A stretch of DNA of 18,667 bases from Clostridiales bacterium (GTDB lineage: Bacteria; Bacillota; Clostridia; Lachnospirales; WQUN01), in assembly GCA_031269465.1 (NCBI GenBank), contig JAISZB010000069.1:1-18667 (forward strand). Reading direction: 5' to 3'. Both the position numbers and the translations under genes were made by a program. Within the stretch, counting starts at the first letter, position 1; every line of letters starts with the position of its first letter. Below, in pieces: positions 1,460-17,822 of this stretch. The notes under the pieces are model-generated. The model saw only the letters and a list, made by a program, of their open reading frames with translations, made no database searches and had not been told where the DNA came from.

Positions 1460-1594
1460 GATTTGCATTGATAATTCCGATTTTGGAGCATTAGTGTACA
1501 GAAAATGCGAAATGCCGGTATCGGCATTTCGTACCTAGAAAGTGGATAATCAAGCTCCAAAATAGGTGATTTGACTGCAAATCGGCATAAATGC
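1460..1594. repeat. Composite nested-hairpin repeat, copy A
   Basis: Left segment GATTTGCATTGATAATTCCGATTTTGGAGC aligns with 17726-17757 of copy C. Hairpin module CGAAATGCCG-gtat-CGGCATTTCG (1508-1531) aligns with 14731-14760 of copy B. Right segment GGATAATCAAGCTCCAAAATAGGTGATTTGACTGCAAATCGGCATAAATGC (1544-1594) is ~85 % identical to 17771-17822 of copy C. Confidence 0.6.
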
Positions 1595-2104
1595 TAGATG
1601 GGCGGGCAGATAAGTCAGGGCGTCTGTCAATCTTGGCTTTAGCTTATACGGGTGGGATTGTTGCAGGGAGATTCCGCCGCCCATAGCGACCCGCCATAAA
1701 TTGACCTGCATTGAATATTCTCGGCATGCATTCATCTCGCCAACTTTCCATTTGGCGCTCTAAAGGACGGGCAAAGGGGAGTGGAGCGGTCTTGAGATGA
1801 AACTCAGAAATGCATAATACAAATGAACAGCATAAGCATTCCGCCAATTGCTGGGGAAGTTGGGCGGCAAAGGTCTTTTCATGACCCATAAAGACGAACC
1901 TCTTTGGCCTTTATCATTTCAAGCAAGGCTTTGCGCCTCTTTGAAAAGCTGAACGATAGAAAAGCCGGCCTACACTGGTTCAGGAAACACAAGCTGGAGG
2001 CGAATCTTTTAGTTTATGCCGCCTAGCCAACATAGTCTTGATGAGTTGGCGTTAGCTCAACCAGCTTATCCTTTGCAATTTTAAAGCCAACTCAAAGCTC
2101 TGCT

Positions 2105-2136
2105 AAAAACGCCTGCCATAATCGGAAGGCGTTTTT
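2105..2136. terminator. Bidirectional rho-independent terminator-like hairpin
   Basis: AAAAACGCCTGCC-ataatc-GGAAGGCGTTTTT: a 13-bp stem (12/13 pairing), a 6-nt loop, an A-run on one side and a T-run on the other. It lies ~300 nt downstream of the stop of the minus-strand SPFH gene. Confidence 0.45.
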
Positions 2137-2443
2137 AGGCTGAAGGATGGATTCCTGCAAAATATAAGCGCGGAAGAAATCGAAGAACTCATCGTGGTGC
2201 TGAACATTTACGCAGCTTAAAATCCCTGCATCCATCAAATTCGTTTTCGCTTTGCTCGAGTGAAGGCAGAGGCAGAAATTACGCCGCTTTGACAGCCATG
2301 CATCCAAAGGCTCAGTCGGAGGCAAAGACAATCTGCTCGGAGCAGCCGGTAGAAGAGCTTCCACTGAAGGCTGAAGGCTACAGAGAGTCTTGCGCATGAC
2401 GCAAGGCAATCGCCGGTTCGCCGCAATCTGAAAGATCCAGCGT

Positions 2444-5008
2444 TCAAGCTTGCTTGAAGACTGCGGCAATCTTATCCAAAAGGTCTTCTCCTCCTGAGAT
2501 GTTGACGTTGCCAATCTTCTCGCAAACTGTCTTGAGGAGCTTTTCACGGTACTCCATTTCTTTTAGGCGCATCAATGTCTGGTTTTCTTCCATCATTTTG
2601 GCCGTATTCAGCAAGCTTCTGGTAGAGGCCACTTCCTCGCGCCGCGTAATGACATTGGACTGGGCTTGCTTTTCGGCTATAAGCACCGAGTTCATCATTT
2701 GGCGGATCTCTCCGGGAAGGATTATATCCTTTACCCCTGCGTCATAAAATTGAACAAAAAGCTCTGGCTCCTTTTCCTTCAGTCGGAGGAAGATAAAGTC
2801 GCTTATCTGGTCTTTGTTCTCCAACAATTCGTCCAGGCGAGCGCGGCCTACGCTGTCCCGGAGCGCCAACTGCACAATGCTGTGTATTTGCTCCTCGAAA
2901 TTGAGAATCTCTGTGCCAATCTTTACATAGTCGGTGATCTTGAAACGGCATACGCAGTTTATCCGCAACTGAACTTTATCCAGCGTAAGGATCTCCTGTC
3001 CTTGAATCTGCAACTGGGTAAGGCGCGTATCTACCAGCTCCACTCTCACGGATACGCCGTTGTTCCAGAAATAGTACGTTCCCTCATCGAGCAGTCGGAT
3101 GAATCTGTCGTTGTAATACAGACGGCCTTTTTGGTAATCCTTTACTTCTTCAAGTTTATACAGGTTATCAGACATCAGCTCGAAAATGTAATATGGTATG
3201 TCATCGGATATCAGTGGTTCGCGTATATCTATCATTTTGAAATCATGCTGATCTTTCAGCTTCCAAAATGCGTAGCGTCCGCTGGGCAACGCATCTGCGA
3301 AGCGGTTATTGCGGTAATGGAGAGCCACGGTTTCATCTGGCACTTCAAGCGGCTGCATTTCATCAGCCAACGCTTGGTCGGCCAAGTAAACGTCAAGGTT
3401 GTACTCCTTTGGGGAAAAAACGGAGTCCGTATTTACCTTGCTGCATGTGAAGCCGTTGCCAAGGAAGGCGTGCCTTCCCGGCTCAAGCATGTTTTGAAAT
3501 ACGCCGTTGTTGAAAAGAAAGCCGCGCTCATTGTCGTTAACTGAGAAAACTTTCAGCTCTTTTGACAATACAGGGTCTTTAAGAAATACATCTAGGCTAC
3601 GGCCTCCAGTGTCAAACGCCTTGCCGGCGGGCATCGAAGAGACGCTTCTGCTTCTGCCGAAGAAGATATGCCTGCCGGGCCTGAGCGTCCCGACAAACAA
3701 TCCTTCTTTATATAATGCTCCGAGGCAGTCATCCTCCACCTCAAAAACCTGCACCTCAGACGAGAAAACCTCATCTCTTAGGTATATATCCGTTTCGCTT
3801 GATTCAGGTATAAATTCTTTGTCTATGTCAACGTTCTTGCAAGTCCATGATTTGCCGAGATACGCGTGTTTTCCTGGTTTAAGGTACTTTTCAAACAAGC
3901 GGTTTTTATACAACACTCCGCGTTCGCCTTCAGAGATGACGTATATATGCAGAATTTCAGCCAGCTTAGGATCTTTAAGATAAATATCTGAACTGTACTT
4001 CTTAAGTTCAGTCTCCATTTCATATTGCTCTACACTAAAGGTTCGCCCGAGAAAGGCATGTCTGCCAGGAGGCAGCATTTTGACGAATAGTCCCGATTTA
4101 AACAAAAAGCCTCGCTGAGTTTCGTAGATTTCAAACACTTGAAGTTCTTCAGCAAGCTCGGGATAGCTTAAAAATACATCCAAAGGCGCGGATTTTGGAG
4201 AGAATTCAGCTTCAATCCGGGCAATTTCATAAGTAAAACCCTTGCCCAGATACGCATACTTGCCGGATTTGAATGATCTGATAAATTTGCCGTTTTTAAA
4301 GACTAGGGCGAACTCACCGTCCTTAACCTCGATTGGCAGCAAGAGTTTCGCTATGGCCGGATCGTGAGTGAAAATATCGATATCGTGACCTGCCGGCGCA
4401 AAGCGGTCATCCATGTTGACCCATACAATGCTGAAGCATTTGCCCAAATAAGCATGCTTGCCCGGAGAAAGCATTTTTTCAAATCGACCGTGCTTAAACA
4501 GGAGGCCTCTCTGGCCTTCCGGAATGTCAAATACTTGAAGTTCGGCAGTGAGATCGGGATCCTTGAGGAATACATCTACAGAGCCGTTTTTCGGCGCAAA
4601 GACACTGTCAGCTTCAACAATTTCGATTGTCCGACTTTTGGTCGCAAGCGCAACATCTCCAGGCTTAAGCAGTCTGGTGAATCGGCCGTTTATAAATAAC
4701 AGCCCTCGCTGATTTTCAAATATGCGGGTGAACATCGAACCCCAACCTTTCCTTAAGGATTTCCACAACGGCGCATTCAACGCATTTGTTTTATGCGATT
4801 TACCTAACGGCGTTGCCGGCTGCCCATGCGGCCTGACAGGCTGCGACGCTTCCAACTCATGCTGTTTGTCAATAGTTGAAGGCTGATCGCCGCTTTTCTG
4901 AGTCTGGGCTGCTCTTAAACATTTAAGAAGGCGAAGCAGCAACTTTCGCTGGAGTTCAGATTCGCAATCGGCCACCGGATCCCATCCTTTCAAAAATAAA
5001 TTTTCCAT
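2444..5008 (-). CDS. SPFH/band-7 (stomatin/prohibitin/flotillin/HflK-C) domain protein with a 9-unit N-terminal tandem repeat array; 854 aa as called
   Basis: Single 854-codon ORF.
- C-terminal third (aa ~625-800) is a canonical SPFH core: GRLYYNDRFIRLLDEGTYYFWNNGVSVRVELVDTRLTQLQIQGQEILTLDKVQLRINCVCRFKITD…IVQLALRDSVGRARLDELLENKDQI…DAGVKDIILPGEIRQMMNSVLIAEKQAQSNV. Compare stomatin QEILTKDSVTISVDGVVYYRV…LAQTTLRNVLGTKNL…WGIKVERVEIKDVKLP…AAEAEA. An Ala/Glu-rich coiled-coil-like tail follows.
- aa ~97-660 consist of nine tandem units with exact 65-67-aa periodicity, starting at aa 97, 163, 229, 296, 361, 426, 493, 558 and 624. Each has the form [D(I/V)(F/Y)L(K/R)DP.L..EL.VF.(V/I)]…(Q/E)RG.LFK.G.F…L.PG(K/R)HA(F/Y)LG..F, which is the pattern of the first β-hairpin of an SPFH domain. 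The last unit is the true start of the SPFH core.
- No hydrophobic N-terminal anchor.
- No strong SD at the 5008 ATG. An alternative start at 4732 (MFTRIF…) has AAGGAAAGG 10 nt upstream. Confidence 0.85.
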   Translation of the reverse strand: MENLFLKGWDPVADCESELQRKLLLRLLKCLRAAQTQKSGDQPSTIDKQHELEASQPVRPHGQPATPLGKSHKTNALNAPLWKSLRKGWGSMFTRIFENQRGLLFINGRFTRLLKPGDVALATKSRTIEIVEADSVFAPKNGSVDVFLKDPDLTAELQVFDIPEGQRGLLFKHGRFEKMLSPGKHAYLGKCFSIVWVNMDDRFAPAGHDIDIFTHDPAIAKLLLPIEVKDGEFALVFKNGKFIRSFKSGKYAYLGKGFTYEIARIEAEFSPKSAPLDVFLSYPELAEELQVFEIYETQRGFLFKSGLFVKMLPPGRHAFLGRTFSVEQYEMETELKKYSSDIYLKDPKLAEILHIYVISEGERGVLYKNRLFEKYLKPGKHAYLGKSWTCKNVDIDKEFIPESSETDIYLRDEVFSSEVQVFEVEDDCLGALYKEGLFVGTLRPGRHIFFGRSRSVSSMPAGKAFDTGGRSLDVFLKDPVLSKELKVFSVNDNERGFLFNNGVFQNMLEPGRHAFLGNGFTCSKVNTDSVFSPKEYNLDVYLADQALADEMQPLEVPDETVALHYRNNRFADALPSGRYAFWKLKDQHDFKMIDIREPLISDDIPYYIFELMSDNLYKLEEVKDYQKGRLYYNDRFIRLLDEGTYYFWNNGVSVRVELVDTRLTQLQIQGQEILTLDKVQLRINCVCRFKITDYVKIGTEILNFEEQIHSIVQLALRDSVGRARLDELLENKDQISDFIFLRLKEKEPELFVQFYDAGVKDIILPGEIRQMMNSVLIAEKQAQSNVITRREEVASTRSLLNTAKMMEENQTLMRLKEMEYREKLLKTVCEKIGNVNISGGEDLLDKIAAVFKQA
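3031..4726 (-). repeat. In-frame tandem array of ~198-bp (66-aa) units inside the SPFH gene: 8 full copies plus a 9th merged with the SPFH core
   Basis: Protein-level periodicity listed above. The units are divergent at DNA level, so the array is ancient rather than a recent slippage expansion. Confidence 0.7.
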
Positions 5009-5989
5009 TATTGCCGCGACCCGGCAGCAGAGCGCCGCGTATGCGCGCTTGCGCGGCGGGGCAATTAAGATATCCGAGAAAAACGCGGAAGCAAATCTTC
5101 GGAAAGACTGCTTTGGCGGAAATCACGTGACATCGGTATCCTCCCCCGGCATGGCGGTACACGCGTCGCCGTCTGCCCGTCTGGTTTGGGAATGCGGCAG
5201 GCATCGGCCCTGGCAGGGCGCAAAGCCTGCATTGTCATCCTTGCAAACCAAAACAGACAGGAGGGCGTAGCAGCGCTCAAAACCGGTAGTTCTGCGTATT
5301 CGGCTTTTATGGAAATTCGATCTGGAATTCATCATCTCCTAAACAAATTTGCTTTCGTGTCATCGGTTTCCGGAAACACCCCGCACGAACCCGCCGGGCG
5401 CCGCCAGCCGTTGTAATGGCTGGAATAGAAACGGATGCTAATATTATAGCACGAAAGAATAACAAAAATGTTACGTTATATTTACAATTTTATATCAAGC
5501 TCGTTCATGCATATGAGAGTATAAAGCGCTTGAAATATGTCTTTCTGTTGCTTCAGCAGCTATACTGATGCGCTTTGCCGTCTGCCATGGGCAAATCGCG
5601 GCGATTAATAAGCTTATGGCTTAGCCCGATTCTATATTAGATCTAAGGCGAGCCGAGCTTTATGAAGGCGATGGATGGAGTTCTCCAGAGGCGCGAAATT
5701 CGCCTTGCAAATACAGTTGAACTTTAGGAAATCAAGGGATAATGCTTCGGTTGAAAATCCATCCCGAATTTTATACAGTATGCTGGCAATTCATATGAAA
5801 AAAGGAGGATGTGCAGTGTTCAAGCTCAATGCAGGCTATACTTTCTCCTGCAAGGAGGCGATCGTCGGGCTCGGGTCGGCGCGTGCGCCGACCGAGCCGC
5901 CGCGGAGATAAAGGATGGACGCTCGGATTTCCTCAAGGATCGCAACTCCGCGTCGCCGACGCCCATGAAGTTTTTTGAGGGGGAGGTTG

Positions 5990-6870
5990 GCCGACGCGCT
6001 CGGCGAAGTTGAAGTCGAGCCTGATTTTAAAGGGATCTCATCGGATCTTCGCGAAGAGGCGGCGGAAGCGCCGGATCCGCGCCAGTCCGCCAAAGCGGCC
6101 CGCCGGCTCCCGGACATGCCCGTCGCGGCACTGCTCGCCATTTTGCGAGGCGCGAACCCTTGGGGCGGCCTCGCGAGATTCGCCGGCGCCAACGCTGCTG
6201 GGATCCGCTTCTCCGCGACAGGCGACACGTTTCAAAACACATTTTCAAGAATCGACGACAACATTATTCTCAGGCATCTGGGCGGCTTCTTAAGCCGCCT
6301 GTCTCAGGCGGCCTCGCAAGCAAGGCGGAGGCCCTGCCAGCTGCCTGCGACACCTTCCCCGAAGAAATAATGCGCATTTCGCGCGACCGAAAGGAAAATG
6401 TCGGATCAGGGAAGGGCGGCGCAGCGAAAGCCAACATATCGGGCGCGTACGACTCCAAAACCGGTGCTGTTCCCGTCAGGGGCTAATCAACGCGAAAACC
6501 GATGAAACCGCGGCGATTCCGGCGCTGGTCGACCATGCCGGCGAAGCCGCGCGAGGATCCATGTCCGCATGGGACGCGCCGGATGCGACGGACAAGAACG
6601 CTAAGAAGGCCATTGAAGCCGGGACGAGCTGCGTTTAGGCGCTCAAGGGCGGCGCAGCGCGCATTTTCAAGCGAAACTGCGATATATTATGGCTGTCGGG
6701 ATAGAGGCCGGAACGGGGTGCGTCGAGATATTGAAAGACGGCATCCCGGCCATCCGCTGGGTTGCGAAAAGAGGCTGAGCGGACTATTTTGCGGCAGCCG
6801 GCATTTCGCGCTCCTGCAACTCGGATAAATAGGCCGAGTCGGACTCCATCCGCAGTTGGAGATGCAGTCC
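5990..6870 (+). mobile_element. ISAs1-family (H-repeat-like) transposase remnant, multiply frameshifted, GC-rich; boundaries approximate
   Basis: Matches the ISAs1 N-terminal pattern (…DPR…H.L.DIL…GA..W.DI..FG…FENGIPSHDT..RVFSRIDP…) in the frame of ORF 5975-6370:
LREEAAEAPDPRQSAKAARRLPDMPVAALLAILRGANPWGGLARFAGANAAGIRFSATGDTFQNTFSRIDDNII.
Matches the ISAs1 DDE-region motifs (SNEITAIP.LL and TIDAMGCQ…ALKGNQ) in other frames, interrupted by stops:
…DSKTGAVPVRG/LINAKTDETAAIPALVDHAG… (6489-6540) and …AWDAPDATDKNAKKAIEAGTSCV*ALKGGAA (to ~6660). Confidence 0.5.
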
Positions 6871-7090
6871 ATCAAAGCGGCGGAACTGCATATTCATTCA
6901 GGCAGATTTTGTCCTCTTCATACGTCATGGAGGAAATTTCAATGTCCACAAGGCTCCACAGGGGAGAATACCGATATTTAAAAAATACCTTCCATTTCTT
7001 AAAACCCATAAATAACGGGGCATTGCCAATTGCTTTATCGATATTAAGAATCAGGAGAAAACCATAATAGCCATCATAAGGCGGCGGGAA

Positions 7091-8300
7091 ATGAACGCAG
7101 AGGAATTCACAGGGAAATTCAACCTTGAAATTTCCAAGTTCGGCTATAAATCCAAGACTCAAAATGCGTACTTGAAACGCTGCAAAGAAATAATGTCTTT
7201 TATGCAACTGGAAGACATTCAGCTTTTCACGGAGGAATCCCTGGAAACATGCCTTGACTGTTTGCGGATTCGGTGCTATTCAGGCGAAATAAAGCCTGCC
7301 GCCCGCAAAATCCCGCGGAGGGCCGCCAGGCTCATGCATGAGCTCAAAGAAAACGGATCGCTGGAGCGGCGCGCCATGGCAGATGGGAAAGCTTTCAAGC
7401 CGACAAGCATGAAGGGCGCATATGAGGAGTTCATCGCATCCGCCTCAAAGCGGCCAGCGCCATCCACTATGCAGGACTTCAGGATCTGCGGCCGCAAGTT
7501 CATCGCGTTTTTGGAAGGCGCAAACCGCGCGGATTTCGAGAATTCCTGCGCCAAGGCCTTGAAGGATTGCATTTTCTTCATGGCTTCATCAAGCAAGCTT
7601 AACGGCTGTCAAAGATTCATTTATGTCTTGAGGGCTTTCTGCGGCTTCTTGTCCCCGAAGGGATTGATCAAGCCTGAAATGGCCGGGATAATGCAGAAGC
7701 CCGCGGGAAGCCGGAGAGACATCCTGCCATACCTGAAGCGGGGGCATGTCGAGGGCCTTCTTGGGCCGAGCCGACGGCATGCAAAACTGCAAGGGAAACT
7801 ATGCCATGACAGCCTTGCCGGCCAACACGGGCTTGAGGTTCGGCGTGATCAGCGAGCTGAAGCTGACAGGCATAGATTGGCGCGGCAACGCCATAAACGC
7901 ATTTCAAGGCAAAAATTCCCAAGCCAGTCAAGCCCCTCTTGACGCCGCGGCCGGCTATCGCTTCAATGAGCGTCCGCAAGGCAAAAACGCGGAATGCATG
8001 TTCATAAGCTCCCGGGCTCCGCACACAAAGCTGGCCGGAGGGAAGCTCATGAAAAAGCGCTTGGAGAAGGCGGGCCTTTGCGAGGGCGAAAGCGGATTCC
8101 ACGCCCTGGGGCGCGGAATAGCCGCGGATCTTCTTGAAGCCGGCGCGGATCATGAGATAGTTTCCCAGATTGACGGGCATATGCGGCTTGAGTCCCTGGA
8201 TCCCTACTTTGCTGTTGACATTGAAGGCTTAAGGAAAAGGCGCCGCGCCAGCTTCGAGGATCTCGGCGCCCCTGCGTCCAGCTGGGGCGCCAAACCTTGA
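7091..8300 (+). pseudogene. Tyrosine recombinase 1 (RitA-like, ~400 aa if repaired) with one frameshift near 7765
   Basis: - N-terminal ~220 aa are in frame A (7091-7942).
- The catalytic domain is in frame B (7746-8300): LLG-RADGMQNCKGNYAMTALPANTGLRFGVISELKLTGIDWRGNAINAFQGKNSQ…FISSRAPHTKLAGGKLMKKRLEKAGLCEGESGFHALGRGIAADLLEAGADHEIVSQIDGHMRLESLDPYF. This carries the box I region, HxLR, a second His and the catalytic Tyr.
- The frames join at LLG, where a GGGCC run (7763-7767) has one base too many. Confidence 0.65.
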
Positions 8301-8332
8301 AAAAGGATGCGTTTGGAAGCGAATTCGACTAG

Positions 8333-9061
8333 GACTTCGCGGACATGATTGAATGCAAAGCCGCCCTCGGCTTTAAGGAGAGCTCATGCTACGGAAGCCC
8401 GCTCAATTTTGATCGCTTCCGCCTCAAGAGCTTTCCCGGCGAATGCAGCATATCAAGCGAAATGCTGCTTGAATGGCTTGAGCCAAGGCCGAGGGAGGGC
8501 GTCAACGGCGCTGCCGCCAGATCATATTCCGCGGCGGGCTTGGCGAACTGCATCAACGCCATGGGGGGGACGTCGCATGTCCTGCATGCGGGCTATCTGG
8601 GGAAACGCGCCCGCTGCAATCCCTACATGTATTCCGACATGGAGTTGAAGCTGTTCATCTTTGCCACAGACTTGCACGCGCATGCGAAAAACCCTTTGGA
8701 CACCACTGTCCGCGACATCTTCAGGCTGCAGCGCTCCTGCGGGTTGCGGCCTTTCGAGCCGCGCCTGCTGAAGCGCGGCGATGTTGATTTCGAAGGCGAA
8801 ACCATTTATATAGCCGACTCGAGGATGCACAATGCGGGGTTTCATGAAAAGCCTGGGATTTTATTTATGTGCGTGTTACGAAAAAAATACTAACGTTCTC
8901 ATTTCTTGAGGCGCAGTTTCGTCACAAAATGCGTGCACAAGTATCTTTATGAAGGCCCTGTCGATTTCAAGTCCATCATTGTGCATTTCCAAAGATGCCC
9001 GGGCCATGCGAAGATCAGCGAGACACTGTACTACATGCGCCTGGTGCGGAAAGGATCCTGA
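8333..9061 (+). pseudogene. Tyrosine recombinase 2 (RitB-like, short) with an in-frame TAA at 8891-8893
   Basis: Frame-2 ORF 8345-8893 reads …YSDMELKLFIFATD…NPLDTTVRDIFRLQRSCGLRPFEPRLLKRGDVDFEGETIYIADSRMHNAGF…, the box I-like region. In the same frame after the TAA it continues SHFLRRSFVTKCVHKYLYEGPVDFKSIIVHFQRCPGHAKISETLYYMRLVRKGS* (8897-9061), which carries HxxR…GH…Y. So the break is a nonsense codon, not an indel. Confidence 0.55.
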
Positions 9062-9157
9062 TGAGCAAAGGGTTCGACCTGAATTGCACGAAGAGGCGGG
9101 ATCAGTCAAAAAGCCAAAGAGCGAATGCCTTGAGCCGCTGAGGGGCTGCATTTCCAT

Positions 9158-9720
9158 ATGTCTCCCCCGGCGGCGAAAGAAAAGCTCCGCCGCTGCCGAA
9201 AACTGCAAATGCGCGCGGAATGTTTTTTTGACTGTCTCGGAGATGTGGAGAAAATCAGCGTCACGGACATAAGCTTTGATAAAATGGCATTTGGCGTCAT
9301 GAACGGATTCGCGCAATGGATGCTTGAGGCGGGGAAATGCAAGAACAGCTCCGCGAATCAAAGGCTATCGCGCATATGGGCGTTCTGCAGGCGCGCATCG
9401 TTGCGAAAGCCTGCCTGCGGCATTTGCTGCAATGAGGTGAAGAGCGCCGGCTCCTTGGATGCCGGCAAGGGCAGGCAAGTGAAATTCTTTTCCGAGGACG
9501 CTCTCCAAGCCATTTTGGAGCAGCCGGACGCATCCGCCAAAATCGGCTGGGGGATTTCTCCCTCATGCTTCTGATGCATGACGCAGGCGCCAGGGCCGGC
9601 GAAATTCTGAAGTTGAGGCTGCCGGGCATTGAATCCCATTCAAGGGAGCTGATAGTGGGCGTCGAAGGAAAAGGGGGCAAGCTCAGGCAGATCCCCCTTA
9701 TGGATGCAACGTGCGCGTAA
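9158..9720 (+). pseudogene. Tyrosine recombinase 3 (RitC-like): N-terminal core-binding domain plus box I only; frameshift at ~9550 and 3'-truncated at ~9720
   Basis: - 9158-9574 has the SAM-like core-binding pattern: …MAFGVMNGFAQWMLEAGKCKNSSANQRLSRIWAFCRRAS…FFSEDALQAILEQPDASAKIGW.
- The frame then shifts inside a G5 run (9549-9553). Restoring one G gives GDFSLMLLMHDAGARAGEILKLRLPGIESHSRELIVGVEGKGGKLRQIPLMDATCA*.
- No HxxR/Y region follows. The sequence becomes AT-rich promoter DNA at 9721. Confidence 0.6.
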
Positions 9721-9776
9721 CTCGGGAAATACTAGGCGGTTTTCCATAAGGGCAGCCCGCCGACCCAATATTTGTT

Positions 9777-9833
9777 TTACACTGTCAGGCATGGCTTGGT
9801 ATACTGATTTTCATTGGTAATTTATGGTATAAT
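9777..9833 (+). promoter_or_regulatory. Two candidate sigma-70-type promoters in the AT-rich spacer
   Basis: TTACAC (9777-9782), a 17-nt spacer, then TATACT (9800-9805). A separate extended -10, TGgTATAAT, lies at 9825-9833. No ORF follows for ~190 nt. Confidence 0.3.
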
Positions 9834-9930: not shown

Positions 9931-9983
9931 GTCGATTAAAATGTCGACAAATACTTAACAAAAATGTCGCTGCATTCTATAAT
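9931..9983 (+). promoter_or_regulatory. Candidate promoter/operator of the phd-vapC operon
   Basis: TTAACA (9955-9960), a 17-nt spacer, then TATAAT (9978-9983). The ATG at 10024 is preceded by AAGGCGGAG (10012-10020). Direct repeats AAAATGTCG lie at 9938-9946 and 9961-9969. Inverted GTCGA / GTCGAC lie at 9931-9948 and bracket the -35. Confidence 0.35.
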
Positions 9984-10023
9984 AGCAATAGACATATTAT
10001 AAATAACGGACAAGGCGGAGATA

Positions 10024-10404
10024 ATGATGGAATTTGTACCTTTAAGAAGTCTACAGCGGGGATTACCAGAGGTCTGGCAGACTCTGCGCAAAGAAAATGG
10101 CCGAATTATTTTGACCAATAAAGGTCAACCAGCATATTTGCTTGTTGATTTAGCAGATAAAGACATCATCAATTTAATTAATTTTTTTGACGACTATCAA
10201 GCAAAAGCGGCGAGTGCGACTTGCGATCCAAAAGTTGAGACAAGTCAGAAACTAACGCCTCAAGAAGAAAAAGCCGCCCAAAATTTTTTAGCGGCAATGC
10301 AAACATTTAGAGAGACTAACTTTACACCAGAGGTTCTAAAGGCATTTACTGAACTTGAGAGCGGTAAATACCGACCTAAGTTATTTCGGGAGCTTGACTT
10401 ATGA
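10024..10404 (+). CDS. Type II antitoxin, Phd/YefM family (126 aa)
   Basis: N-terminus MMEFVPLRSLQRGLPEVWQTLRKENGRIILTNKGQPAYLLVDLADKDIINLI fits the Phd/YefM fold pattern (…ARQNL…PIlITrnG.p.avLvsl..Y..L). Its stop overlaps the toxin start (ATGA at 10401-10404). Confidence 0.8.
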   Translation: MMEFVPLRSLQRGLPEVWQTLRKENGRIILTNKGQPAYLLVDLADKDIINLINFFDDYQAKAASATCDPKVETSQKLTPQEEKAAQNFLAAMQTFRETNFTPEVLKAFTELESGKYRPKLFRELDL

Positions 10405-10814
10405 TATATGCACTTGATACCAATATTGTTTCATACATCATCAGGGGTGAAGGAGAAGCTGACAAGCGATTTTCACAAGAGCTTCAGGCCGGCAATTCAT
10501 TTGCCATTCCACCAATGGCGGTCTACGAATTAAAACGTTGGCTAATGGATAATCCATCGAAAGAAATGAGATTTCTGGCTCGAGAATTCGATAGTTTATA
10601 CAAAAGTGTACGCCACAAATCAGAAATGTCCGCTTCTGCATGGGAAGAAGCGGCGAAAATTTATATTCATTTAAAGCAAAAAGGTGAATTGATTGAAGAC
10701 ATGCATATTTTAATTGCCTCTTATTGTTTAGTGAATGATTATGTACTGGCAACTAATAATGCTAGACATTTTGATCGGATAGATGGAATAAAATATGTTA
10801 ATTGGATGAATTAG
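10401..10814 (+). CDS. vapC: Type II toxin VapC (PIN-domain ribonuclease), 137 aa
   Basis: MIYALDTNIVSYIIRGEGEADKRF… carries the PIN acidic residues: D in LDTN, E in YELK, D in IEDMHILIAS, and N/D in ATNNARHFDRI. The 4-bp ATGA overlap with the antitoxin indicates translational coupling. An 11-bp perfect inverted repeat (10818-10828 / 10848-10858) follows the stop. Confidence 0.85.
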   Translation: MIYALDTNIVSYIIRGEGEADKRFSQELQAGNSFAIPPMAVYELKRWLMDNPSKEMRFLAREFDSLYKSVRHKSEMSASAWEEAAKIYIHLKQKGELIEDMHILIASYCLVNDYVLATNNARHFDRIDGIKYVNWMN

Positions 10815-10943: not shown

Positions 10944-10978
10944 GGCAGGGTTGAAAGCGACCCTGCCTTGTTGCGTTC
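10944..10978 (+). terminator. Terminator-like hairpin
   Basis: GGCAGGGT-tgaaagcg-ACCCTGCC followed by TTGTTGCGTT. Confidence 0.3.
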
Positions 10979-11080
10979 AGCCTATAAAAACGCCAATGCA
11001 AAAAGGAGCGGACAAGCGTTGCTTGCGGCCTCACGCAACAGCCAAAACCAAAATTTAATCAAGTGGGGGAGCCAATCACG

Positions 11081-11260: not shown

Positions 11261-11312
11261 CGCCGTTTAATGTGCCGCAAGCGTTCAGAACTGCCGGAAT
11301 CAGGAGGCCGAA

Positions 11313-11689
11313 ATGAACAAGAAAACCACGATTCTCTACGAGCGCTTGAGTAGGGAAGATTCGAGGGCCGATGAAAGTCTGTCCATCGAAAACCAGAAGA
11401 AGATTCTGGAGAAGTACGCTGCGGAGATGGCTTCACGCCATTCTCCCATATCAGTGATGACGGCGCGACCGGAGCCAACTTCAATCGACCCGGCTGGCAG
11501 GAGCTGATCGCCAAAGTCGAGAACGATGTGGTCAGCACGATACTCATCAAGACGATGGACATGATGGGGCGCGATTACCTCCGCGCCGGGCTGTTCCGAG
11601 AGCGCGGGGTGCGCCTGATAGCCGTCGGCGACGGTTACGACAGTTCGCTCGGCGATGACGAGCGTTTACCGCGCCAAAAGATTTTTTGA
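11313..11689 (+). pseudogene. Large serine recombinase, N-terminal resolvase catalytic domain only; frameshift at ~11441 and 3'-truncated
   Basis: AGGAGG lies 6 nt upstream of the ATG. MNKKTTILYERLSREDSRADESLSIENQKKILEKYAAEMASRH contains the Y-x-R-x-S catalytic-serine motif typical of large serine recombinases. After a one-T deletion in a TTT run it continues FSHISDDGATGANFNRPGWQELIAKVENDVVSTILIKTMDMMGRDYLRAGLFRERGVRLIAVGDGYDSSLGDDERLPRQKIF*. The ~350-aa recombinase and zinc-ribbon C-terminal domains are absent. The convergent RidA gene begins 21 bp later. Confidence 0.7.
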
Positions 11690-11709
11690 CGCCAGCAAAT
11701 TCAATTTTC

Positions 11710-12045
11710 ATCAAACCCTAATCTCCCATGTCTGATAAATAAATTCACTGGCTAAAGTCATCATTGCAGGGAAACCGCCTTTATCAAAGCATTCATAGAA
11801 AACGGCACTTGCCTTGACAAAATCCAATAAGTCTAGCAAATACAAATTAATCTGAACCATATCGCTAAACGTTGCGCCTACTGGCACTAAGGTATTCTCA
11901 TGCTTATAAAAGCTGCTCGCATTTGATGTTCAATATCTTTCATGTCAAATCCACCTGCATGGTGTGCAAGAAAGATGAATCGCCCTCGACTACACAACCC
12001 GGACAGCAATATTCGACTAGCTCTCTGCGCGTCATCGATATTCAT
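11710..12045 (-). pseudogene. RidA/YjgF/TdcF-family protein, frameshifted (about 110 aa if repaired)
   Basis: - First frame: MNIDDAQRASRILLSGLCSRGRFIFLAHHAGGFDMKDIEHQMRAAFISMRIP*.
- Adjacent frame: (L)VPVGATFSDMVQINLYLLDLLDFVKASAVFYECFDKGGFPAMMTLASEFIYQTWEIRV*.
- This matches the RidA C-terminal pattern …aGa.l.dVvk.tvyL.d..dFaavN.vY..yF….PAR.av.V..LP.ga.vEIe.iA.
- The frames join if CC (minus strand, ~11891) is read as CCC.
- AAGGAAG RBS. The start codon forms an ATGA overlap with the CPBP stop. Confidence 0.55.
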
Positions 12046-12904
12046 CTTCCTTTGATTTTGTATTTCCCATTAATTAACAAAAGAGCTAAAATTATAACCG
12101 CCGCATATCCGATTACTTCGGGGAAAGAGGCTTCAATTCCGAACGCGCCGCCTGTCAAAAGCACCGATTTTGTTTGCAAGGTATAGGTGAAAATATTGGC
12201 ATTGCGGGGATTAACGCCAATAGTCAATATCTGTCCTATAATGATTAAGTTCCAAATGCCGTGAACGACCGCGCCCGGAAATATAGAACCGCTCTGATAG
12301 CAAATCAGCGAAAACGTTATCGATACACTTGTCCCGGCAACGAACAGCAGCAGAATGTCTAGCAAGTTGGGATTTTGCATATTTGTAAGATGCATCAGTA
12401 CGAAGATAATCGATGGCACGAGAACCGCCGCGATTTTACCGAAATGAACCTCAAGAATCCTCATAACAAAGCCCCTAAAAAGCAGTTCTTCGCCAAATCC
12501 GGCGGCAAGGCAAGCGCTGAATATTGCGCAGGCAAAAATATACTCAATCGTTGCGCTGTCCAAATGCCGATTTGCGAAAACTCCGTCCGCGAAAAATATA
12601 AAGTATAGCGAAACGAGCGCGGGCAGAATCACGGCGACAGGAATCCAAACCGCCCAAGCCCTCGGAGAAGCGGGCTTTTTCACTCGGCAATCTGATAAAA
12701 CTATTTTCAGCGCTTTTCGGCAATACAGGCTGAGCAGCACAAACAACAGCGCGGCACGGACGAGTGCATTCAAAACTTGCGAAATCACAGGGGACGGAAT
12801 GTGAAACGCAAGCGTCGCTATCCCTTGGATAAAACAAATCCGACAATGCCGACAAGCGCGTGAAGCATTGCCTTTGGCGCGGTTAGAATAAATTCTATTT
12901 TCAT
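12042..12904 (-). CDS. CPBP-family intramembrane metalloprotease (CAAX protease / Abi domain), with an apparent frameshift at ~12825
   Basis: The 248-aa ORF (12042-12788) has multiple TM helices and the CPBP motif 1, EELLFRG (…AAGFGEELLFRGFVMRIL…), with later conserved His residues (…LMHLTN…, …VVHGIWN…). Upstream, in frame -1, is MKIEFILTAPKAMLHALVGIVGFVLSKG* (start 12904). Reading one extra A in the AA run at ~12825 joins it as …VLSKGIATLAFHIPSPVISQVLNALV…, a plausible first TM helix. Confidence 0.8.
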
Positions 12905-13050
12905 ATGCATTTCCCTTTCCCTGCTGTGCCTTTAGACTTCCAATTTTTCGTCCTACACGTTTGCAGCAACTTCCGATTGGTTGATTCCATTTACTTTCTT
13001 TTTCCTGCCAACCATCATCACATACATAAATAAAACAATGATAAAGACTA

Positions 13051-13435
13051 TTATATGCGCGATTGAAATGCGCCTATTTCTTTTGATAGTTTTCGGCACT
13101 TTCTGCCGATATAAAACGCATATCCATAATGCTGTTTATATTGCGAGTGCAGTTCCACTTCGCATTCATCATTCTCGACATAGGCCTCCGCAGTTTTATT
13201 GCCGGAATGCCTTATCAGAAACGCTTTTCCGCTTCTGCTCTGGGTTCGAAATGATTGTCCGTCCAACACTGTTCTGGCAGCTTAAACACAGCTATGGGAG
13301 CATAGCCCGCCCTTTGCATTACTTAAATACTATGCCCTATCGTATCCAATCCGCTGCAGGCATCAGACCAAAATTTCTCGACTTCATCGGCGTGTTCGTC
13401 CGTGAACCAGAAAGGGCAGCTTACATAGCCGTTCA
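13051..13435 (-). pseudogene. Small gene directly downstream of the TetR gene, broken into three frames (36 aa + ~35 aa + 72 aa); product unknown
   Basis: - MNGYVSCPFWFTDEHADEVEKFWSDACSGLDTIGHSI*, whose start lies 2 nt after the TetR stop.
- MQRAGYAPIAVFKLPEQCWTDNHFEPRAEAEKRF*.
- …AFLIRHSGNKTAEAYVENDECEVELHSQYKQHYGYAFYIGRKCRKLSKEIGAFQSRI*.
Together these read like one ~130-aa protein. No family assigned. Confidence 0.25.
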
Positions 13436-13438
13436 TTT

Positions 13439-14153
13439 TCAGAAATCCGTTCCAATGTGCCTCTCCACCATTTTGATGGCTGCCGCCTTGTCCTCCATGC
13501 TGTCGAAAATGTTCATCATCATGTAGATGGGAGAGAAATACTCCAACGCGAGGATATACGGGTCTTTATCGACATTGTGCGGCAACTCCGCCATTTCACG
13601 CATCAAATCCTGCGTGTGGCTGACGCCGCCGCCCGTCAGGCATTGATTCAGCAACTCCGCCATCTCCTGATTCCTGTACTGCTCAATCGTCAGTATTTTT
13701 CGGGTCTTTAAACTTAACTGGGCAAAAAGCAAGAATGCACATGCAAGAACCTTGTAAAATCAGCGTTTGAGTCATTGGATGCAGGGCAGTGCCCGCTAGA
13801 GTTTAAAGACCCTATTTTTCTAAACGGCGCCGCAAATTCATCCTCCGTCCAATAACGGAACTGAGCGACGCTGATCGCCTTGATTTTTTCAAGCGCGGTA
13901 TTGCGGCGCGTTTCCTCCGCATCGGAAAAACCTACTTTCTGCACTCCGAACTCCTTTGCCCGCTGCGCGTCTCGCTCCCGCATACGGCGTACTATGCTGT
14001 CATAGATGTCTTGCTTGTTTTGTAGTGCCTGTACAATGCGCCTTTCGCTATTCCAAGCCGCCCCGCAATCATGCTGGCGGATGCCGCTTCATAGCCGTCT
14101 TTCGCAAACAGCTTCAGCGCCGCAATCAAAATTCTCTCTTTCGTGTTTTCCAT
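13439..14153 (-). pseudogene. TetR/AcrR-family transcriptional regulator (about 199 aa when repaired), interrupted by a 111-bp MITE plus a -1 frameshift in the HTH region
   Basis: - GGAGG RBS, then MENTKERILIAALKLFAKDGYEAASASMIAGRLGIAKGALYRHYK.
- Here an A4 run (~14017-14020) should be A5.
- It continues NKQDIYDSIVRRMRERDAQRAKEFGVQKVGFSDAEETRRNTALEKIKAISVAQFRYWTEDEFAAPFRK.
- Then the MITE.
- Then ILTIEQYRNQEMAELLNQCLTGGGVSHTQDLMREMAELPHNVDKDPYILALEYFSPIYMMMNIFDSMEDKAAAIKMVERHIGTDF*.
- Removing 13702-13820 restores …APFRKILTIEQ… exactly in frame. Confidence 0.8.
13702..13812. mobile_element. MITE-like insertion, 111 bp; 12-bp perfect terminal inverted repeats and an 8-bp target-site duplication
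   Basis: - TIR-L GGGTCTTTAAAC (13702-13713) and TIR-R GTTTAAAGACCC (13801-13812).
- Flanked by the perfect direct repeat TATTTTTC at 13694-13701 and 13813-13820.
- No ORF inside.
- Contains the internal palindrome GGGCAGTGCCC.
- Precise excision with one TSD copy restores the TetR reading frame. Confidence 0.75.
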
Positions 14154-14680
14154 TTCCGGCCTCCATTGCATAAACAGCCTTTTACGGCTATTATAGTATA
14201 CGCTCGTTTACTCGTCTAGAGATTTTAGAGACGGATAATTAAAAAAGAGAAAAGAGAAAAAATAAAAAATATCCGAAATATCCTTGGCAGCACAGTTCTA
14301 AGGCTTTTGGAGTATCAACTATGAGAATTTTTAACTCTCCAGTTCTAAAATATAAACTTTTTCCACGTTTCCTCCTCAGGTGTTTTTGAGGTGGATTTTC
14401 ATACTATCTATTCAGTCCTTATCCAGCATTCGCCATTTTAATCATCAAATAAACCTGACACGGATTTTGCGCTTAAGCTTTTTTGAGTTTGCTGGATGAG
14501 GCCAGCCAAATTCACTTGCACGGCTATTTTGTCAGCGGCGAAGTTTCTGCGGATGCGCCGGTTAACATCCAGAAAGCCGCCGGTCTTCTGTAGGCCGTAC
14601 ATTTGGCTTGCGGGCTAGCCGTGGAAAAGGCCGCTACTATGGTCGCCAGGCGCCGTGAGGCAACCATCGGGTTAATCCAT

Positions 14681-14815
14681 GATTTCTTTGGATTTACGCC
14701 GAAGGAACTTGATTGATTATCCATTGAGTGGTGCGAAATGCCGATATCGCCATTTCGCACTCGCTGTATAGTCAAGCTCCCAAAAAGGCAATTTTCTATG
14801 AAAATCAGCATGTCT
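14681..14815. repeat. Composite nested-hairpin repeat, copy B
   Basis: - Left arm CTTGATTGATTATCC (14709-14722), cf. GGAGCTTGATTATCC in copy C.
- 30-bp near-perfect palindrome GTGCGAAATGCCGAT|ATCGCCATTTCGCAC (14731-14760), cf. the hairpin of copy A.
- Then …GTCAAGCTCCCAAAAAGGCAATTTTCTATGAAAATCAGCAT…, homologous to the A/C right segment TCAAGCTCCAAAATAGGTGATTTGACTGCAAATCGGCAT. Confidence 0.55.
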
Positions 14816-15801
14816 GCCAGAGGCGGCAAAATGGTAGTCTTGCAATGCGGCGGCATAGAGTGCCTCATGCTATACCGGGCGACAATAGAGGAGGCGGAAG
14901 CCTAGAGTAACGGAATTTTGTCGGGGTGCGACTGTCTCCTGAACATAAGATTAAGGTGGAGATTTGCTCTATCTCAAATGCTTTCAAGATAATATCAGTG
15001 GAGAGTTTGAGAAGATGGCATAAGCTTGCAAAGGAAGGAATATGATAGACCGTGTATGCCTAAAGAACTGATGATGGGACTTAATCGAGAGTCTAAGTTC
15101 GGAGAGCATCCATCTCAAAGGATATTATTCTAAATATAGTCGCAATCTAAAGCCAAGCCCAAAAATAAGGACTTGCATCAGTATAACTGCTCGCAGGGTG
15201 GAAAAGTGCATCAGCAGCTTATAGCTGGTTGCATTAGTTGAGTGATGGCTTCGGAAAATGTGGACATTGGGAAGTGGAGCTTCTCTAAGGGCAATAGCAA
15301 GGGAATGAGGAAAGTGTAGAAGCGCTAAAAGTTCATTTGCAAAAACAATTCCCAAGAGATTATTTTCTATGGTTCCCCAAGAAGCGCTTCTTGGCGGAGG
15401 GTTTCTTCAGGGGCCAAGGCGGATAAGCTTTGGACGGCATAGGTTGAATTAGTGCCTGAGGCCGTCCTCGCTGCAGCAATTGTTTTACTTCTAAGCCGCA
15501 GCAAACGGGATGGATATTATTCACGCAGATTACTCAGCTAAATATAGAAAACAGCAGTATCGGCTGCCGCCAGAACGAAATCAATCATGGCTGATTTATC
15601 AAAATAAGCGAACGATTCTATGCCGCAATTTTTTGCGCTTGCAGAAGAGTTGAAAACATGAATATACGGCTAGACTTTCGCAACTCTGCCCGCTGTACTC
15701 TGCAGTTCGCTGCATGTTGATTCCTTATGGCAGATTTTTCGCTTTTTGCATAGAGGCTTTCATCAGTTTTTTCGCCGTTGCCAGGGGTCATGGAGGTAAA
15801 T

Positions 15802-17568
15802 ATGGAAGAAAATTTCGAAGATTTGCTTGACCGTATGCTTACAGCTCTGCATGCCGCTGAAAAGAGACATCGGGCGGTTCGAGACAGCGCATCCGACAGC
15901 AGTAATTGGAGCGCCTACGACAATGAAGTTAAATTTATTTCTGACATAATCAAATGGCGAAGAGACTTAGAGCCGCTTCGTATGCATATTGTCAGTTCCG
16001 GGGCGGTAATCGTCGAGGATGTTCCTCAAGCTGCTGGTTCATCTGACAAAGAGCCCGTTCCAGTCAGCGTTGAGGATGATCCCGCGGCCCATCGCTTCGA
16101 CGATGAGCGCATAGGGCGTTATGTAAGGCGGAAAATGAAAGATTTGAGCAATGCGGGGTTTGCGTTCCCGGCTGAAGGCATTGCGAATCTGCAAAATGCC
16201 CAGTGGTGCTTTCAGGTTCTAAATATAGCGCACCCTTTCTTTTTGCAAACAACACAGAAAGCGACTCATTATTGGAAAAGTGATATTTTTATATTTAACG
16301 GCAGGTCATTCCGCCTCTGTATGGAATGGTACAATGATCTGTATAGGGGCCGCAGCCAGCGCGAATGCTTCGACAACTGGTATAATAGCCTATCCATTGA
16401 TACAAGTTCCGAGTCTTTTAAAGACGGCGAAGAAATCAGAATCGGCGAATATATTCGCAGCAAACTCCGAGAGTTGAGCAACAGCGGGTTTGCATTTACT
16501 GAAGATCAGATAAAGCAGCTAGGTGATGTAGAATGGAGCAGTGTGACATTTGCCAAGAAATCTTTTTTGCCAATTGCGAGAATTGCAAAGAGAAATCAAG
16601 ATATTAGCCTGCAAATAAGAGACGATAGAGGTAAAGTCAGATATTGGAATGAGTTGTTTTCTTTCGGAAAAACTGACTTGCTGTTTACTAACAGATGGAA
16701 ACTGCGGAATAGGGAGAGCTTCGATAGGTGGTACGAAAAACTCTCGCAAGTTGAAAAAACAATTGCGGCTGATACCCTTATATTTAGAAAGACTGTGAAC
16801 TGGTCTATGCTGAATTACGGATTTTCAGTGCCAGCATCAAATTGGGGGCTTTTATTTGACGCGATAGGGGGAGCTGTTGATAGGGCCGCCGGTCGGAAAG
16901 TATCTGTGGATGTAGCAGGCGTAAGTTGTACAGCGCTTGTTTCTTGTTCAGTGAGCGGAAATAAAAAGACGGTTCAAATACGCTATCCTCAGAACAGCGG
17001 CATACTATCTTATCTTAGAGAGAGCTTTGCTGATATTTACGCCTATTGCATTCAAGAACGCAACCTTCACGGCAAGGACAGGCGCATTGACATCCCCTCC
17101 GATATGGAAGGAAGCATAAGCATTTACGCGGCAAAAGAGCAGAAAGCACTGAGAATTGACTGCGGATCTCATAAGATAGGAAATGGCGTTGAGGCGCAGG
17201 CTGAAACGGTAATTATTCATGCTAAATCACAATTTAATGGGGATGGCATCGTAGAGGTTTCTAATTCTTTTGTTCCGATTTTGAAATTCCCAGACAGAAA
17301 TTTTATTATTTGCGCCAAGCTTAATGCGGATGCTCAATCGGTTTCGTTTAGAGCTGAGGCGGAAGGCAGCCCGCATGCCGAAAAATCTCTCACGGTCGCC
17401 CATCTAAAAGAAGTCGCTCTGCTTGAAAGGAGCAAACGCATTCATCGAGTCGCTGTTCCAGAGAGCGTGAATGTCAGAAAGAAAATGATGTTTATGGCGT
17501 GGATTGACCCTCCGGGGATTAACATTCAGGAAGAAACGCCAATATCCCAACCTTTGGAAGAGCCCTGA
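15802..17568 (+). CDS. Hypothetical protein, 589 aa (596 aa from the upstream ATG at 15778), with two ~100-aa internal repeats; no recognisable domain
   Basis: The long ORF is the only open frame on either strand here. GGAGG lies 5 nt upstream of the ATG at 15802. Repeat 1 (aa ~106-205) is DDERIGRYVRRKMKDLSNAGFAFPAEGIANLQNAQW…FNGRSFRLCMEWYNDLYRGRSQRECFDNWYNSLS. Repeat 2 (aa ~216-323) is GEEIRIGEYIRSKLRELSNSGFAFTEDQIKQLGDVEWS…FTNRWKLRNRESFDRWYEKLS. The shared motifs are IG.Y(V/I)R.K(M/L)(K/R)(D/E)LSN.GFAF and (E/R)(C/S)FD.WY..LS. The C-terminal ~270 aa are non-repetitive. Confidence 0.75.
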   Translation: MEENFEDLLDRMLTALHAAEKRHRAVRDSASDSSNWSAYDNEVKFISDIIKWRRDLEPLRMHIVSSGAVIVEDVPQAAGSSDKEPVPVSVEDDPAAHRFDDERIGRYVRRKMKDLSNAGFAFPAEGIANLQNAQWCFQVLNIAHPFFLQTTQKATHYWKSDIFIFNGRSFRLCMEWYNDLYRGRSQRECFDNWYNSLSIDTSSESFKDGEEIRIGEYIRSKLRELSNSGFAFTEDQIKQLGDVEWSSVTFAKKSFLPIARIAKRNQDISLQIRDDRGKVRYWNELFSFGKTDLLFTNRWKLRNRESFDRWYEKLSQVEKTIAADTLIFRKTVNWSMLNYGFSVPASNWGLLFDAIGGAVDRAAGRKVSVDVAGVSCTALVSCSVSGNKKTVQIRYPQNSGILSYLRESFADIYAYCIQERNLHGKDRRIDIPSDMEGSISIYAAKEQKALRIDCGSHKIGNGVEAQAETVIIHAKSQFNGDGIVEVSNSFVPILKFPDRNFIICAKLNADAQSVSFRAEAEGSPHAEKSLTVAHLKEVALLERSKRIHRVAVPESVNVRKKMMFMAWIDPPGINIQEETPISQPLEEP

Positions 17569-17725
17569 AATTCCCCATGTTTGGCGAAGAATATGCAGGC
17601 GCAAGTTGAATGAGATGCATGTCAGGGTTTGGAAGCCAATGGCATTGCATAGTCGGCATACTATGGCGGCTATGGATAAGGATGGCGAAGCAAGTGTTGC
17701 TCCGCGCATTAATTTTAGCTATGTA

Positions 17726-17822
17726 GATTTGCATATGAAAGTTGCGGATTATGGAGCTTGATTATCCAACGGATAATCAAGCTCCATAATCGGTGCATTT
17801 GACCGTAAATCGGCATATATGC
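17726..17822. repeat. Composite nested-hairpin repeat, copy C (base form without the inserted hairpin)
   Basis: GATTTGCATATGAAAGTTGCGGATTATGGAGC followed by the perfect 15-bp palindrome GGAGCTTGATTATCC-aac-GGATAATCAAGCTCC (17753-17785), then ATAATCGGTGCATTTGACCGTAAATCGGCATATATGC. Same orientation as copy A, ~16.2 kb away. Confidence 0.6.

Follow-up and report, generated by a model that had tools for sequence, protein, structure and literature searches.

Recombinase-in-trio (RIT) elements, which carry the tyrosine-recombinase genes ritA, ritB and ritC (Van Houdt 2009/2012, Ricker 2013), occur widely, in different phyla and on chromosomes as well as plasmids; the mechanism of their movement is not known, and this movement has yet to be reproduced (PMC10214605, PMC3414803). 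Published accounts give them three recombinase genes and either terminal inverted repeats of 34 bp (PMC10214605) or palindromic ends of 47–51 bp, and no miniature derivatives were found in the RIT literature searched, which did not cover Ricker et al. (2013). A 2025 survey of repetitive extragenic palindromic (REP) sequences uses the same three letters for Rho-independent terminators and is irrelevant to these elements. The present analysis concerns the entire 18,667-bp contig JAISZB010000069.1 of a single metagenome-assembled genome (MAG) of a Clostridiales bacterium (GCA_031269465.1; locus tag LBU32_06020), hereafter the window. It contains three copies, named A, B and C, of a palindromic repeat, and the motifs that these copies carry make it slightly more probable than an even chance that they are miniature elements without genes, assembled from the recombinase sites of RITs and mobilized in trans.

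RITs and the repeat have in common the end motif [AT]TATGCCGA(T), and their palindromes are built alike, from two inverted motif copies with a 2-nt spacer and a short clamp. They differ in size and content, since a RIT measures about 3.3 kb and holds three recombinase genes, whereas the repeat measures 100–145 bp and holds none. They differ also in layout: RITs carry the palindrome outside one of their terminal repeats, the repeat carries it at its centre, the left terminus of the repeat is a poor copy of the motif, and the motif spacing is 18–20 nt in the repeat and 17 nt in RITs.

With less than about 300–500 bp, no coding sequence and terminal inverted repeats, the repeat has the size and structure of miniature inverted-repeat transposable elements (MITEs), which are likewise small, non-coding, present in multiple copies, divided into long and short subfamilies and presumably moved in trans; the difference lies in the parent, which for the repeat would be a tyrosine-recombinase element and not a DDE insertion sequence (IS). 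The enterobacterial repetitive intergenic consensus sequences (ERIC, also called intergenic repeat units, IRU) and the Correia-type repeats are also imperfect palindromes of about 100–150 bp whose variants differ by a fixed central block, but they belong to Proteobacteria, have no link to recombinase sites, and no sequence relationship to the repeat was found.

REP sequences and bacterial interspersed mosaic elements (BIMEs), with their REP-associated tyrosine transposases (RAYTs), resemble it in being extragenic palindromes, copy C apart, that can nest or cluster. REPs, however, are 20–40 nt long, with a conserved GT[AG]G head and an associated HUH gene, none of which is seen for the repeat. 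Their copies number tens to hundreds per genome and are extragenic; copy C is intragenic. Elements derived from IS200/IS605 have a subterminal hairpin at each end and a TnpA (Y1) relative, insert 3' of a fixed tetra- or pentanucleotide and lack terminal inverted repeats, while the repeat is bounded by terminal inverted repeats and forms one palindrome from end to end. Finally, cis-mobilizable elements (CIMEs) and other non-autonomous integrative elements flanked by att sites are, like the repeat, gene-poor and dependent on a tyrosine recombinase in trans (a dependence that for the repeat is putative), but CIMEs extend over kilobases between direct att repeats, with a fixed tRNA or gene as their target, in contrast to a 100-bp palindrome.

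A family of three palindromic copies

The three copies and the perfect hairpin within the shortest of them are the following.

1451 to 1597, plus strand: copy A, long form, with an outer imperfect stem, a sub-stem TTTTGGAGC/GCTCCAAAA and a central palindrome
14681 to 14815, minus strand: copy B, long form with one degenerate end; its orientation is ambiguous, slightly better inverted relative to A
17720 to 17824, plus strand: copy C, short form, in which the central 41 nt are missing, inserted in the 3' part of the gene at 15778 to 17964
17747 to 17791, unstranded: perfect hairpin of C, with 21-bp arms (17747–17767 and 17771–17791), 100% complementary, and the loop aac

Together they form one repeat family of about 100–147 nt, in which the whole length of each copy is an imperfect palindrome and none contains an open reading frame (ORF). 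The repeat has the terminal sequence TTATGCCGAT, and the left termini of the copies read TATACTGAT and TATGTAGAT. In copy A the arms are 50 nt long and 70% complementary, and the nhmmer score is 143 bits. The long form (A and B) has a central palindrome of 24–30 bp that the short form (C) lacks. In a three-way comparison A, reverse-complemented B and C align cleanly, C corresponding to the long form minus its central 41 nt. Outside this indel A and C are 80% identical overall (29/37 in the left segment, 46/51 in the right).

The number of copies is not accounted for by chance, given that the arm core GGATAATCAAGCTCC occurs four times in the window at three mismatches or fewer, against 0.57 expected, and the inner palindrome twice, against 0.00 expected. 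The three copies lie where a sequence-only reading of the window had placed them, and its description of a modular, nested-palindrome family that is dense in the contig is supported. The identity of about 85% that it had given for A and C was roughly right. Two details need revision: the perfect hairpin of C, taken to have 15-bp arms, has arms of 21 bp, and the left arm of A has not been replaced by an insert, as the three-way alignment shows this arm to be diverged and the central 41 nt to be missing from C.

When folded as single-stranded DNA, A (−28.7 kcal/mol, z = −5.5) and C (−29.0 kcal/mol, z = −8.0) form strong structures; B folds weakly (z = −1.7 to −2.6), and this copy is degraded. 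A and C have the same orientation (alignment score 84, against 59 when inverted), as had been read from the letters. B aligns with a score of 108 when inverted and 92 when direct, and palindromy leaves its orientation soft. A and inverted B have derived arm changes in common and lie in unrelated flanks, which implies that the long form spread as a unit. A profile search of the window gave no fourth full copy.

These nested hairpins had been attributed to REP-like elements mobilized by a hairpin-targeting HUH enzyme of the RAYT or IS200/IS605 type, one hairpin being inserted into another. The nesting itself is real, and an insertion without target duplication, which is one of the two options for copy C described below, would be compatible with such an enzyme. 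Nevertheless, no Y1_Tnp/HUH domain was found by Pfam in 28 ORFs of the window, and ORFs that overlap the copies gave no Pfam match; a tblastn search of the window with an IS200 probe gave no match, and no TnpA remnant was found in the window. The peptide IHLHGYFVSGEVSADAP, which had been described as belonging to an ORF fragment that ends inside copy B, with a faint likeness to the C-terminus of IS200-type TnpA, matches no Pfam family; it belongs to a 38-codon stop-to-stop frame (14477–14590) that ends about 90 nt before B. Besides, the copies are too long for REPs and have terminal inverted repeats, and GTAG is present only at the left junction of C and not in A or B, so that there is no conserved GTAG-type head. 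Since, in addition, the inner hairpin is specifically a RIT end palindrome, as described in the following section, mobilization by an HUH enzyme is very improbable.

The ends of RIT elements in soil metagenomes and plasmids

A metagenome scan with the inner palindrome CGAAATGCCGNTATCGNCATTTCG as query returned 16 soil contigs, in about five independent groups, all of which carry the perfect palindrome CGAAATGCCGATATCGGCATTTCG. In seven of them it occurs near the tyrosine-recombinase trio of a RIT element, about 180 bp away from the first or last gene and on its outer side. The ends of these soil RITs are terminal inverted repeats of the form [AT]TATGCCG-N9-[AT]TATGCCG, followed further in by a third, inverted copy, and the palindrome directly adjoins one of the terminal repeats. 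In two contigs a host gene rejoins across the RIT: in L019 it reads ..YFYCVDEDFGP|AFIKVCAYFPYPGKIWVNGHEWAKRQ.. (..CVDEDFGP|AFIKV..), with TTTCGGCCC (9 bp) at both junctions, and in L020, where the gene is serine-recombinase-like, it reads ..IAEYE|RAQIAER.., with CGAGCG (6 bp) at both junctions. The rejoined host genes indicate that the palindrome belongs to the inserted DNA, and exact RIT integration junctions can thus be read from metagenome contigs. The RitA proteins of the soil lineages are only 42–62% identical while the palindrome is unchanged, which points to a strong constraint on the latter. The end palindrome may be found at either the ritA or the ritC end (L019, L020 and L012).

An independent test was provided by RITs picked from annotated plasmids by protein similarity alone. 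Those of Mesorhizobium, Streptomyces, Mycobacterium, Citricoccus and Cupriavidus have ends of the form TTATGCCG(A)-N9-TTATGCCG(A), together with an inner inverted copy. Beyond its ritC-side repeat the Streptomyces RIT carries GAGGCC TTATGCCGA CA TCGGCATAA GGCCTC, and at the same position the Mycobacterium plasmid RIT carries GGTGCG TTATGCCGA GG TCGGCATAA CGCACC. The common architecture (loci L031 and L034–L038) consists of M1-N9-M2, an inverted M3 about 55–70 nt inward and sometimes the end palindrome. The motif is TTATGCCGA in most of these RITs; one RIT of Rhodococcus has the same layout made from another motif, TTATTCCGA. This end architecture is conserved across Actinomycetota, Alphaproteobacteria and Betaproteobacteria.

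Several observations accompany these comparisons. RITs often neighbour one another (L008, L031 and L039), those of Sphingobium have a different repeat at their ends, and the soil and Mycobacterium RIT end regions gave no match against plasmids, or only themselves. Some palindromes and ends stand alone, the palindrome without trio or end motifs in the soil contigs L010 and L011, and solo RIT ends in the soil group of L009 and L014. In L014, between 7800 and 10700, a leader-like segment of about 250 nt (translated ..LLVPRCITTDPPYLLWHGW..) is present three times upstream of methyltransferase-like genes, and one of the three segments adjoins a solo RIT end with palindrome.

RIT site modules in the repeat

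Four stretches of the copies correspond to the RIT sites described above.

1506 to 1533, unstranded: central palindrome of A, TGCG AAATGCCGG TA TCGGCATTT CGTA, two inverted RIT-type motifs 2 nt apart
14730 to 14760, unstranded: central palindrome of B with clamp, GGTGCG AAATGCCGA TA TCGCCATTT CGCAC
1581 to 1591, minus strand: right terminus of A, TTTATGCCGAT, a RIT end motif with a matrix score of 12.2
17809 to 17819, minus strand: right terminus of C, TATATGCCGAT, a RIT end motif with a matrix score of 10.8

The palindrome of A is identical to the soil RIT palindrome at 22 of 24 positions, its two halves having matrix scores of 11.0 and 13.8, and that of B at 23 of 24. Compared with the ritC-side palindrome of the Mycobacterium plasmid RIT, that of B matches at 24/31 positions, including the clamp and the 2-nt spacer, a value that none of 1000 shuffled sequences attained; against the Streptomyces RIT the figure was 1/1000. 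The right termini of A and C represent the cross-phylum RIT end motif TTATGCCGA, in the form [AT]TATGCCGAT. Both have an exact motif and then a second, degenerate copy 18–20 nt inward, and the left termini are poor copies. The terminus of C, CATATATGCCGATTTACGG, also matches the terminal repeat of the Mesorhizobium RIT (16/19; 5–6/1000 shuffles). The end of the Rhodococcus RIT, used as a negative control on account of its different motif, gave no signal against the copies.

A weight matrix was built from 47 RIT end motifs, none of them from the window. Of its ten best matches in the window five fall within the three copies, whose combined length is 2.1% of the window, and a sixth is the half palindrome at 6797 described below; exact AT[GT]CCGAT sites are likewise concentrated, with five of six inside the copies. 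Judged by sequence, then, RIT site modules are present in the repeat, the end motif at the right terminus (A and C) and the end palindrome at the centre (A and B).

These matches weigh against the notion of a generic MITE or ERIC-like repeat that is served by some unidentified transposase and resembles RIT sites by coincidence. Size, terminal inverted repeats, a hairpin over the whole length and the existence of long and short variants are all typical of MITEs, ERIC and Correia-type repeats; there may be a 7-bp duplication around C, and debris of IS1595 and DDE_Tnp_1_assoc transposases lies nearby. A coincidence would nonetheless have to produce a palindrome that 0–1 of 1000 shuffles equal when it is compared with independent RIT ends, with the same 2-nt spacer and clamp, and every metagenome match of the palindrome was counted against this explanation as standing in a RIT-end context. 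There is moreover a RIT in the same contig, and no IS in the window has matching ends. We therefore regard a generic repeat as improbable.

An ordinary host repeat or MITE could also have been moved by other means and have served as a preferred target of RITs, in which case the central palindrome would be the footprint of a RIT lost from the hairpin loop. It is in agreement with this that C exists without the central palindrome, that RITs cluster at each other's ends (L008, L031 and L039), that a solo palindrome without trio or end motifs is found in L010 and L011, and that repeat fragments flank the resident RIT. The diverged arm shared by A and inverted B, however, means that the palindrome was not gained twice independently. 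This explanation would also leave unaccounted for that A and C have a RIT end motif at their right termini, and the soil RIT targets that could be rebuilt lie in genes, not in palindromes. Such a target is an unlikely explanation, if a little less so than the generic repeat.

Copy C as an insertion in a gene

Copy C lies within a gene, and its surroundings are as follows.

15778 to 17964, plus strand: gene interrupted by C; a 596-aa ORF ends at 17568 and a homologous tail occupies 17600–17725 and 17825–17964
17720 to 17726, plus strand: left junction heptamer TATGTAG, a target duplication or crossover core
17818 to 17824, plus strand: right junction heptamer TATGCAG, 98 nt from the left heptamer and matching it at 6/7 positions

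A 707-aa homologue aligns past the stop of the ORF, its residues 614–669 with 17600–17773 and its residues 660–706, in a different frame, with 17833–17964. When 95–98 nt of C are removed in silico, a single-frame alignment of 90–93 residues is obtained with four homologues (59–68 bits); with C left in place, the alignment is broken into two parts that score about 40 and 34 bits. The rejoined sequence reads ..RINFSYV(A)VRNTVQRKRLPNGFWIES.., where a homologue has ..TYFSYIQSDIAVNGKRLSNGLWVETN... This test is a protein-level stand-in for an empty site and not a DNA empty site. Because the frame is restored across the junction, C is an insertion inside a gene, and the removal indicates that the short form was inserted as a unit. 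The repeat is or was therefore mobile, as the sequence-only reading had supposed. The tail of the gene also bears a frameshift and an in-frame stop, and the contigs that hold the homologues (L025–L030) have no copies of the repeat. For annotation, the 596-aa gene should be regarded as a gene disrupted near its 3' end.

Copies and fragments around a decayed RIT

The contig holds the remains of a RIT of its own, and sequences related to the repeat lie near it.

7091 to 9792, plus strand: decayed RIT trio with a Phage_integrase domain, RitC being truncated at 9792
9800 to 9822, plus strand: partial copy of 23 nt, confined to the left end and 91% identical to that of A (0/500 shuffles)
6797 to 6838, unstranded: tentative fragment, a half palindrome CCGGCATTTCGC and a terminal-like CTGCAACTCGGATAAAT, about 260–290 nt upstream of ritA
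5560 to 5577, plus strand: doubtful left-end-like match CTATACTGATGCGCTTTG at a step in GC content (11/500 shuffles)

Within the trio, RitA residues 237–395 align with 7791–8237, RitB residues 2–174 with 8306–8824 and RitC residues 152–231 with 9547–9792. A protein search gave no homologues for the ORF at 7091–7942, and with the RitA fragment it returned only the window's own protein. The fragment at 9800 begins 8 nt past the last aligned position of ritC, and on its right side the GC content is down to 39%. At the other side of the trio, CCGGCATTTCGC is identical at 12/12 positions to half of the palindrome of A (matrix score 11.0), and the fragment (6798–6830) was equalled in 0–2 of 500 shuffles. 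When 6786–6925 was aligned to RIT left ends, the half palindrome alone was significant, and a complete left end is not claimed.

The presence of a RIT trio remnant in the same 18.7-kb contig counts in favour of a miniature element derived from RIT sites. As an alternative, A, B and C could be non-mobile relics, the decayed or internally deleted ends of former full RITs, comparable to solo long terminal repeats. The contig is indeed full of decayed mobile DNA, and solo RIT ends do occur in the soil group of L009 and L014. Independent deletions, on the other hand, would not yield three copies with the same internal stems and architecture, the order of the motifs is unlike that of a RIT end, and C is a clean insertion of 95–98 nt. 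An origin as relics is thus rather improbable, slightly more so than a generic repeat.

Other stretches of the window resemble the repeat or its motif. At 1697–1735, about 100 nt to the right of A, TAAATTGACCTGCATTGAATATT is 74% identical to the left end of A and is followed by CTCGGCATGCAT; it may be a further decayed fragment, or chance. A strong matrix match, GTCGGCATACT (17652–17662, score 13.2), lies in coding sequence 67 nt upstream of the insertion point of C, and other strong isolated matches are found at 12561, 16996 and 2013. The partial copy at 9800 is overlapped by a promoter-like TTTACA-18-TATACT with an upstream TG (9776–9805), and a stronger site of this kind, TTAACA-17-TATAAT (11/12), is located at 9955–9983. 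Both face a vapBC-like pair (10024–10814), whose VapC is confirmed by NCBIfam.

Proposed movement of the elements by RIT recombinases

The reading that we favour is that of gene-less miniature elements, which would relate to RITs as MITEs do to insertion sequences. The motif copies would be bound by tyrosine recombinases of the RitA/B/C type, and site-specific recombination at or beside these copies would be what moves the elements in trans. The copies or half copies found at breakpoints, at the end of ritC (9792/9800) and in the half palindrome at 6797, may be products of such recombination. What would be new here is a MITE-like element with a tyrosine-recombinase element as its would-be parent.

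A number of observations weigh against this proposal. As regards the sites, the left termini TATACTGAT and TATGTAGAT and the GGATAATC arms score poorly on the RIT matrix, and the palindrome is central in A and B where real RITs have it outside one terminal repeat. The junction repeat of C is imperfect, so that a 95-nt insertion without duplication fits equally well, and there is no clear flanking repeat at A or B. As regards the resident trio, its identity to the RITs whose ends are known is only 29–40%, the best match being a Rhodococcus RIT, which uses the other motif, and its own ends are not statistically recognizable beyond a half palindrome of 10–12 nt. Recombination by RIT proteins, furthermore, has never been shown experimentally (PMC10214605).

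The distribution of the repeat also has to be set against the proposal, as there are just three full copies, in one MAG contig. No further copy was found among 185,579 species-representative genomes with the exact 19-mer GGATAATCAAGCTCCANAAT, for which the scan gave seven single matches, in unrelated taxa, that are alike over only 16–24 nt and represent chance. Four patterns searched in viral contigs gave either no match or one chance match, and BLASTN of A and C against plasmids and phages returned nothing, or one chance match of 30 nt. The whole window had no match to plasmids by megablast and none to Rfam 15 at gathering scores.

A more specific version, which is tentative and on balance doubtful, is that the copies are “mini-RITs”, the first gene-less and self-contained RIT substrates. 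These would be units of 100–145 bp that insert at motif-like sites (TATGCAG, compared with TATGCCG), and their nested palindromes would have arisen by the integration of a minimal site, consisting of two inverted motifs, into the centre of another copy. If this were true, the minimal cis-requirements and the target would be defined for a class of elements that nobody has yet made to move. A derivative of 100 bp whose ends and central site are defined, and whose junction can be reconstructed, would be a minimal substrate for studying binding, excision and integration by RitA/B/C, and it would add a tyrosine-recombinase counterpart to MITEs. The “onion” idea, in which every arm segment is a decayed copy of the motif, stands as speculation only, the weight matrix giving it no support at the left termini and the GGATAATC arms.

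The contig as a patchwork

A and C had also been interpreted as att-like direct repeats bounding an island of 16 kb assembled or delivered as one unit. In favour of this, they are co-oriented and 80–90% identical. One gene, however, lies on both sides of C, and C is for this reason not an island border; copy B and two fragments are found within the interval, which is compositionally heterogeneous, and the flanks outside it are equally decayed. This interpretation is as improbable as mobilization by an HUH enzyme, and in practical terms no island should be annotated between A and C.

As a whole the contig is a patchwork and did not arrive as a single unit. GC content swings between 39% and 58% in the A–C interval, which holds several decayed mobile elements, and the IS debris of the contig includes IS1595 and DDE_Tnp_1_assoc fragments. 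To the left of A the sequence is decayed from 312 to 1370, with a fragment of an IS1595-family transposase on the minus strand (312–707) and an ATP-binding cassette (ABC) ATPase of the OppF/DppF type split over three frames (about 747–1370; a frameshifted oppF-like gene). To the right of C there is a GH2 fragment.

Neighbouring genes and other repeats

At 2444–5008, on the minus strand, the window encodes an 854-aa SPFH/Band 7 protein with about nine tandem modules of some 60 residues (..QRGLLFKxGxFxxxLxPGxHAxLG..) N-terminal to the SPFH domain. A look-up found this exact protein on no other record, and the proteins of the window occur on no other contig of the protein collection. An inverted repeat at 13702–13812, with 23-nt arms that are 83% complementary and 65 nt apart, has no relation to the A/B/C family and probably corresponds to the “MITE” that the sequence-only reading had placed beside a TetR-like gene.

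The gene interrupted by C has relatives in L025–L030, where homologues of the 596-aa protein (49–53% identity) are encoded at the head of a conserved cluster. This first gene is followed by genes for an unknown protein of 275–392 aa, an HSP70/MreB-like protein, a UvrD-type helicase, a large Helicase_C protein and a protein of about 590 aa, and it is often preceded by a SLFN_AlbA_2/HATPase_c_4 gene. The cluster may be a defence-type system, of which the window keeps only the first gene, with its tail decayed.

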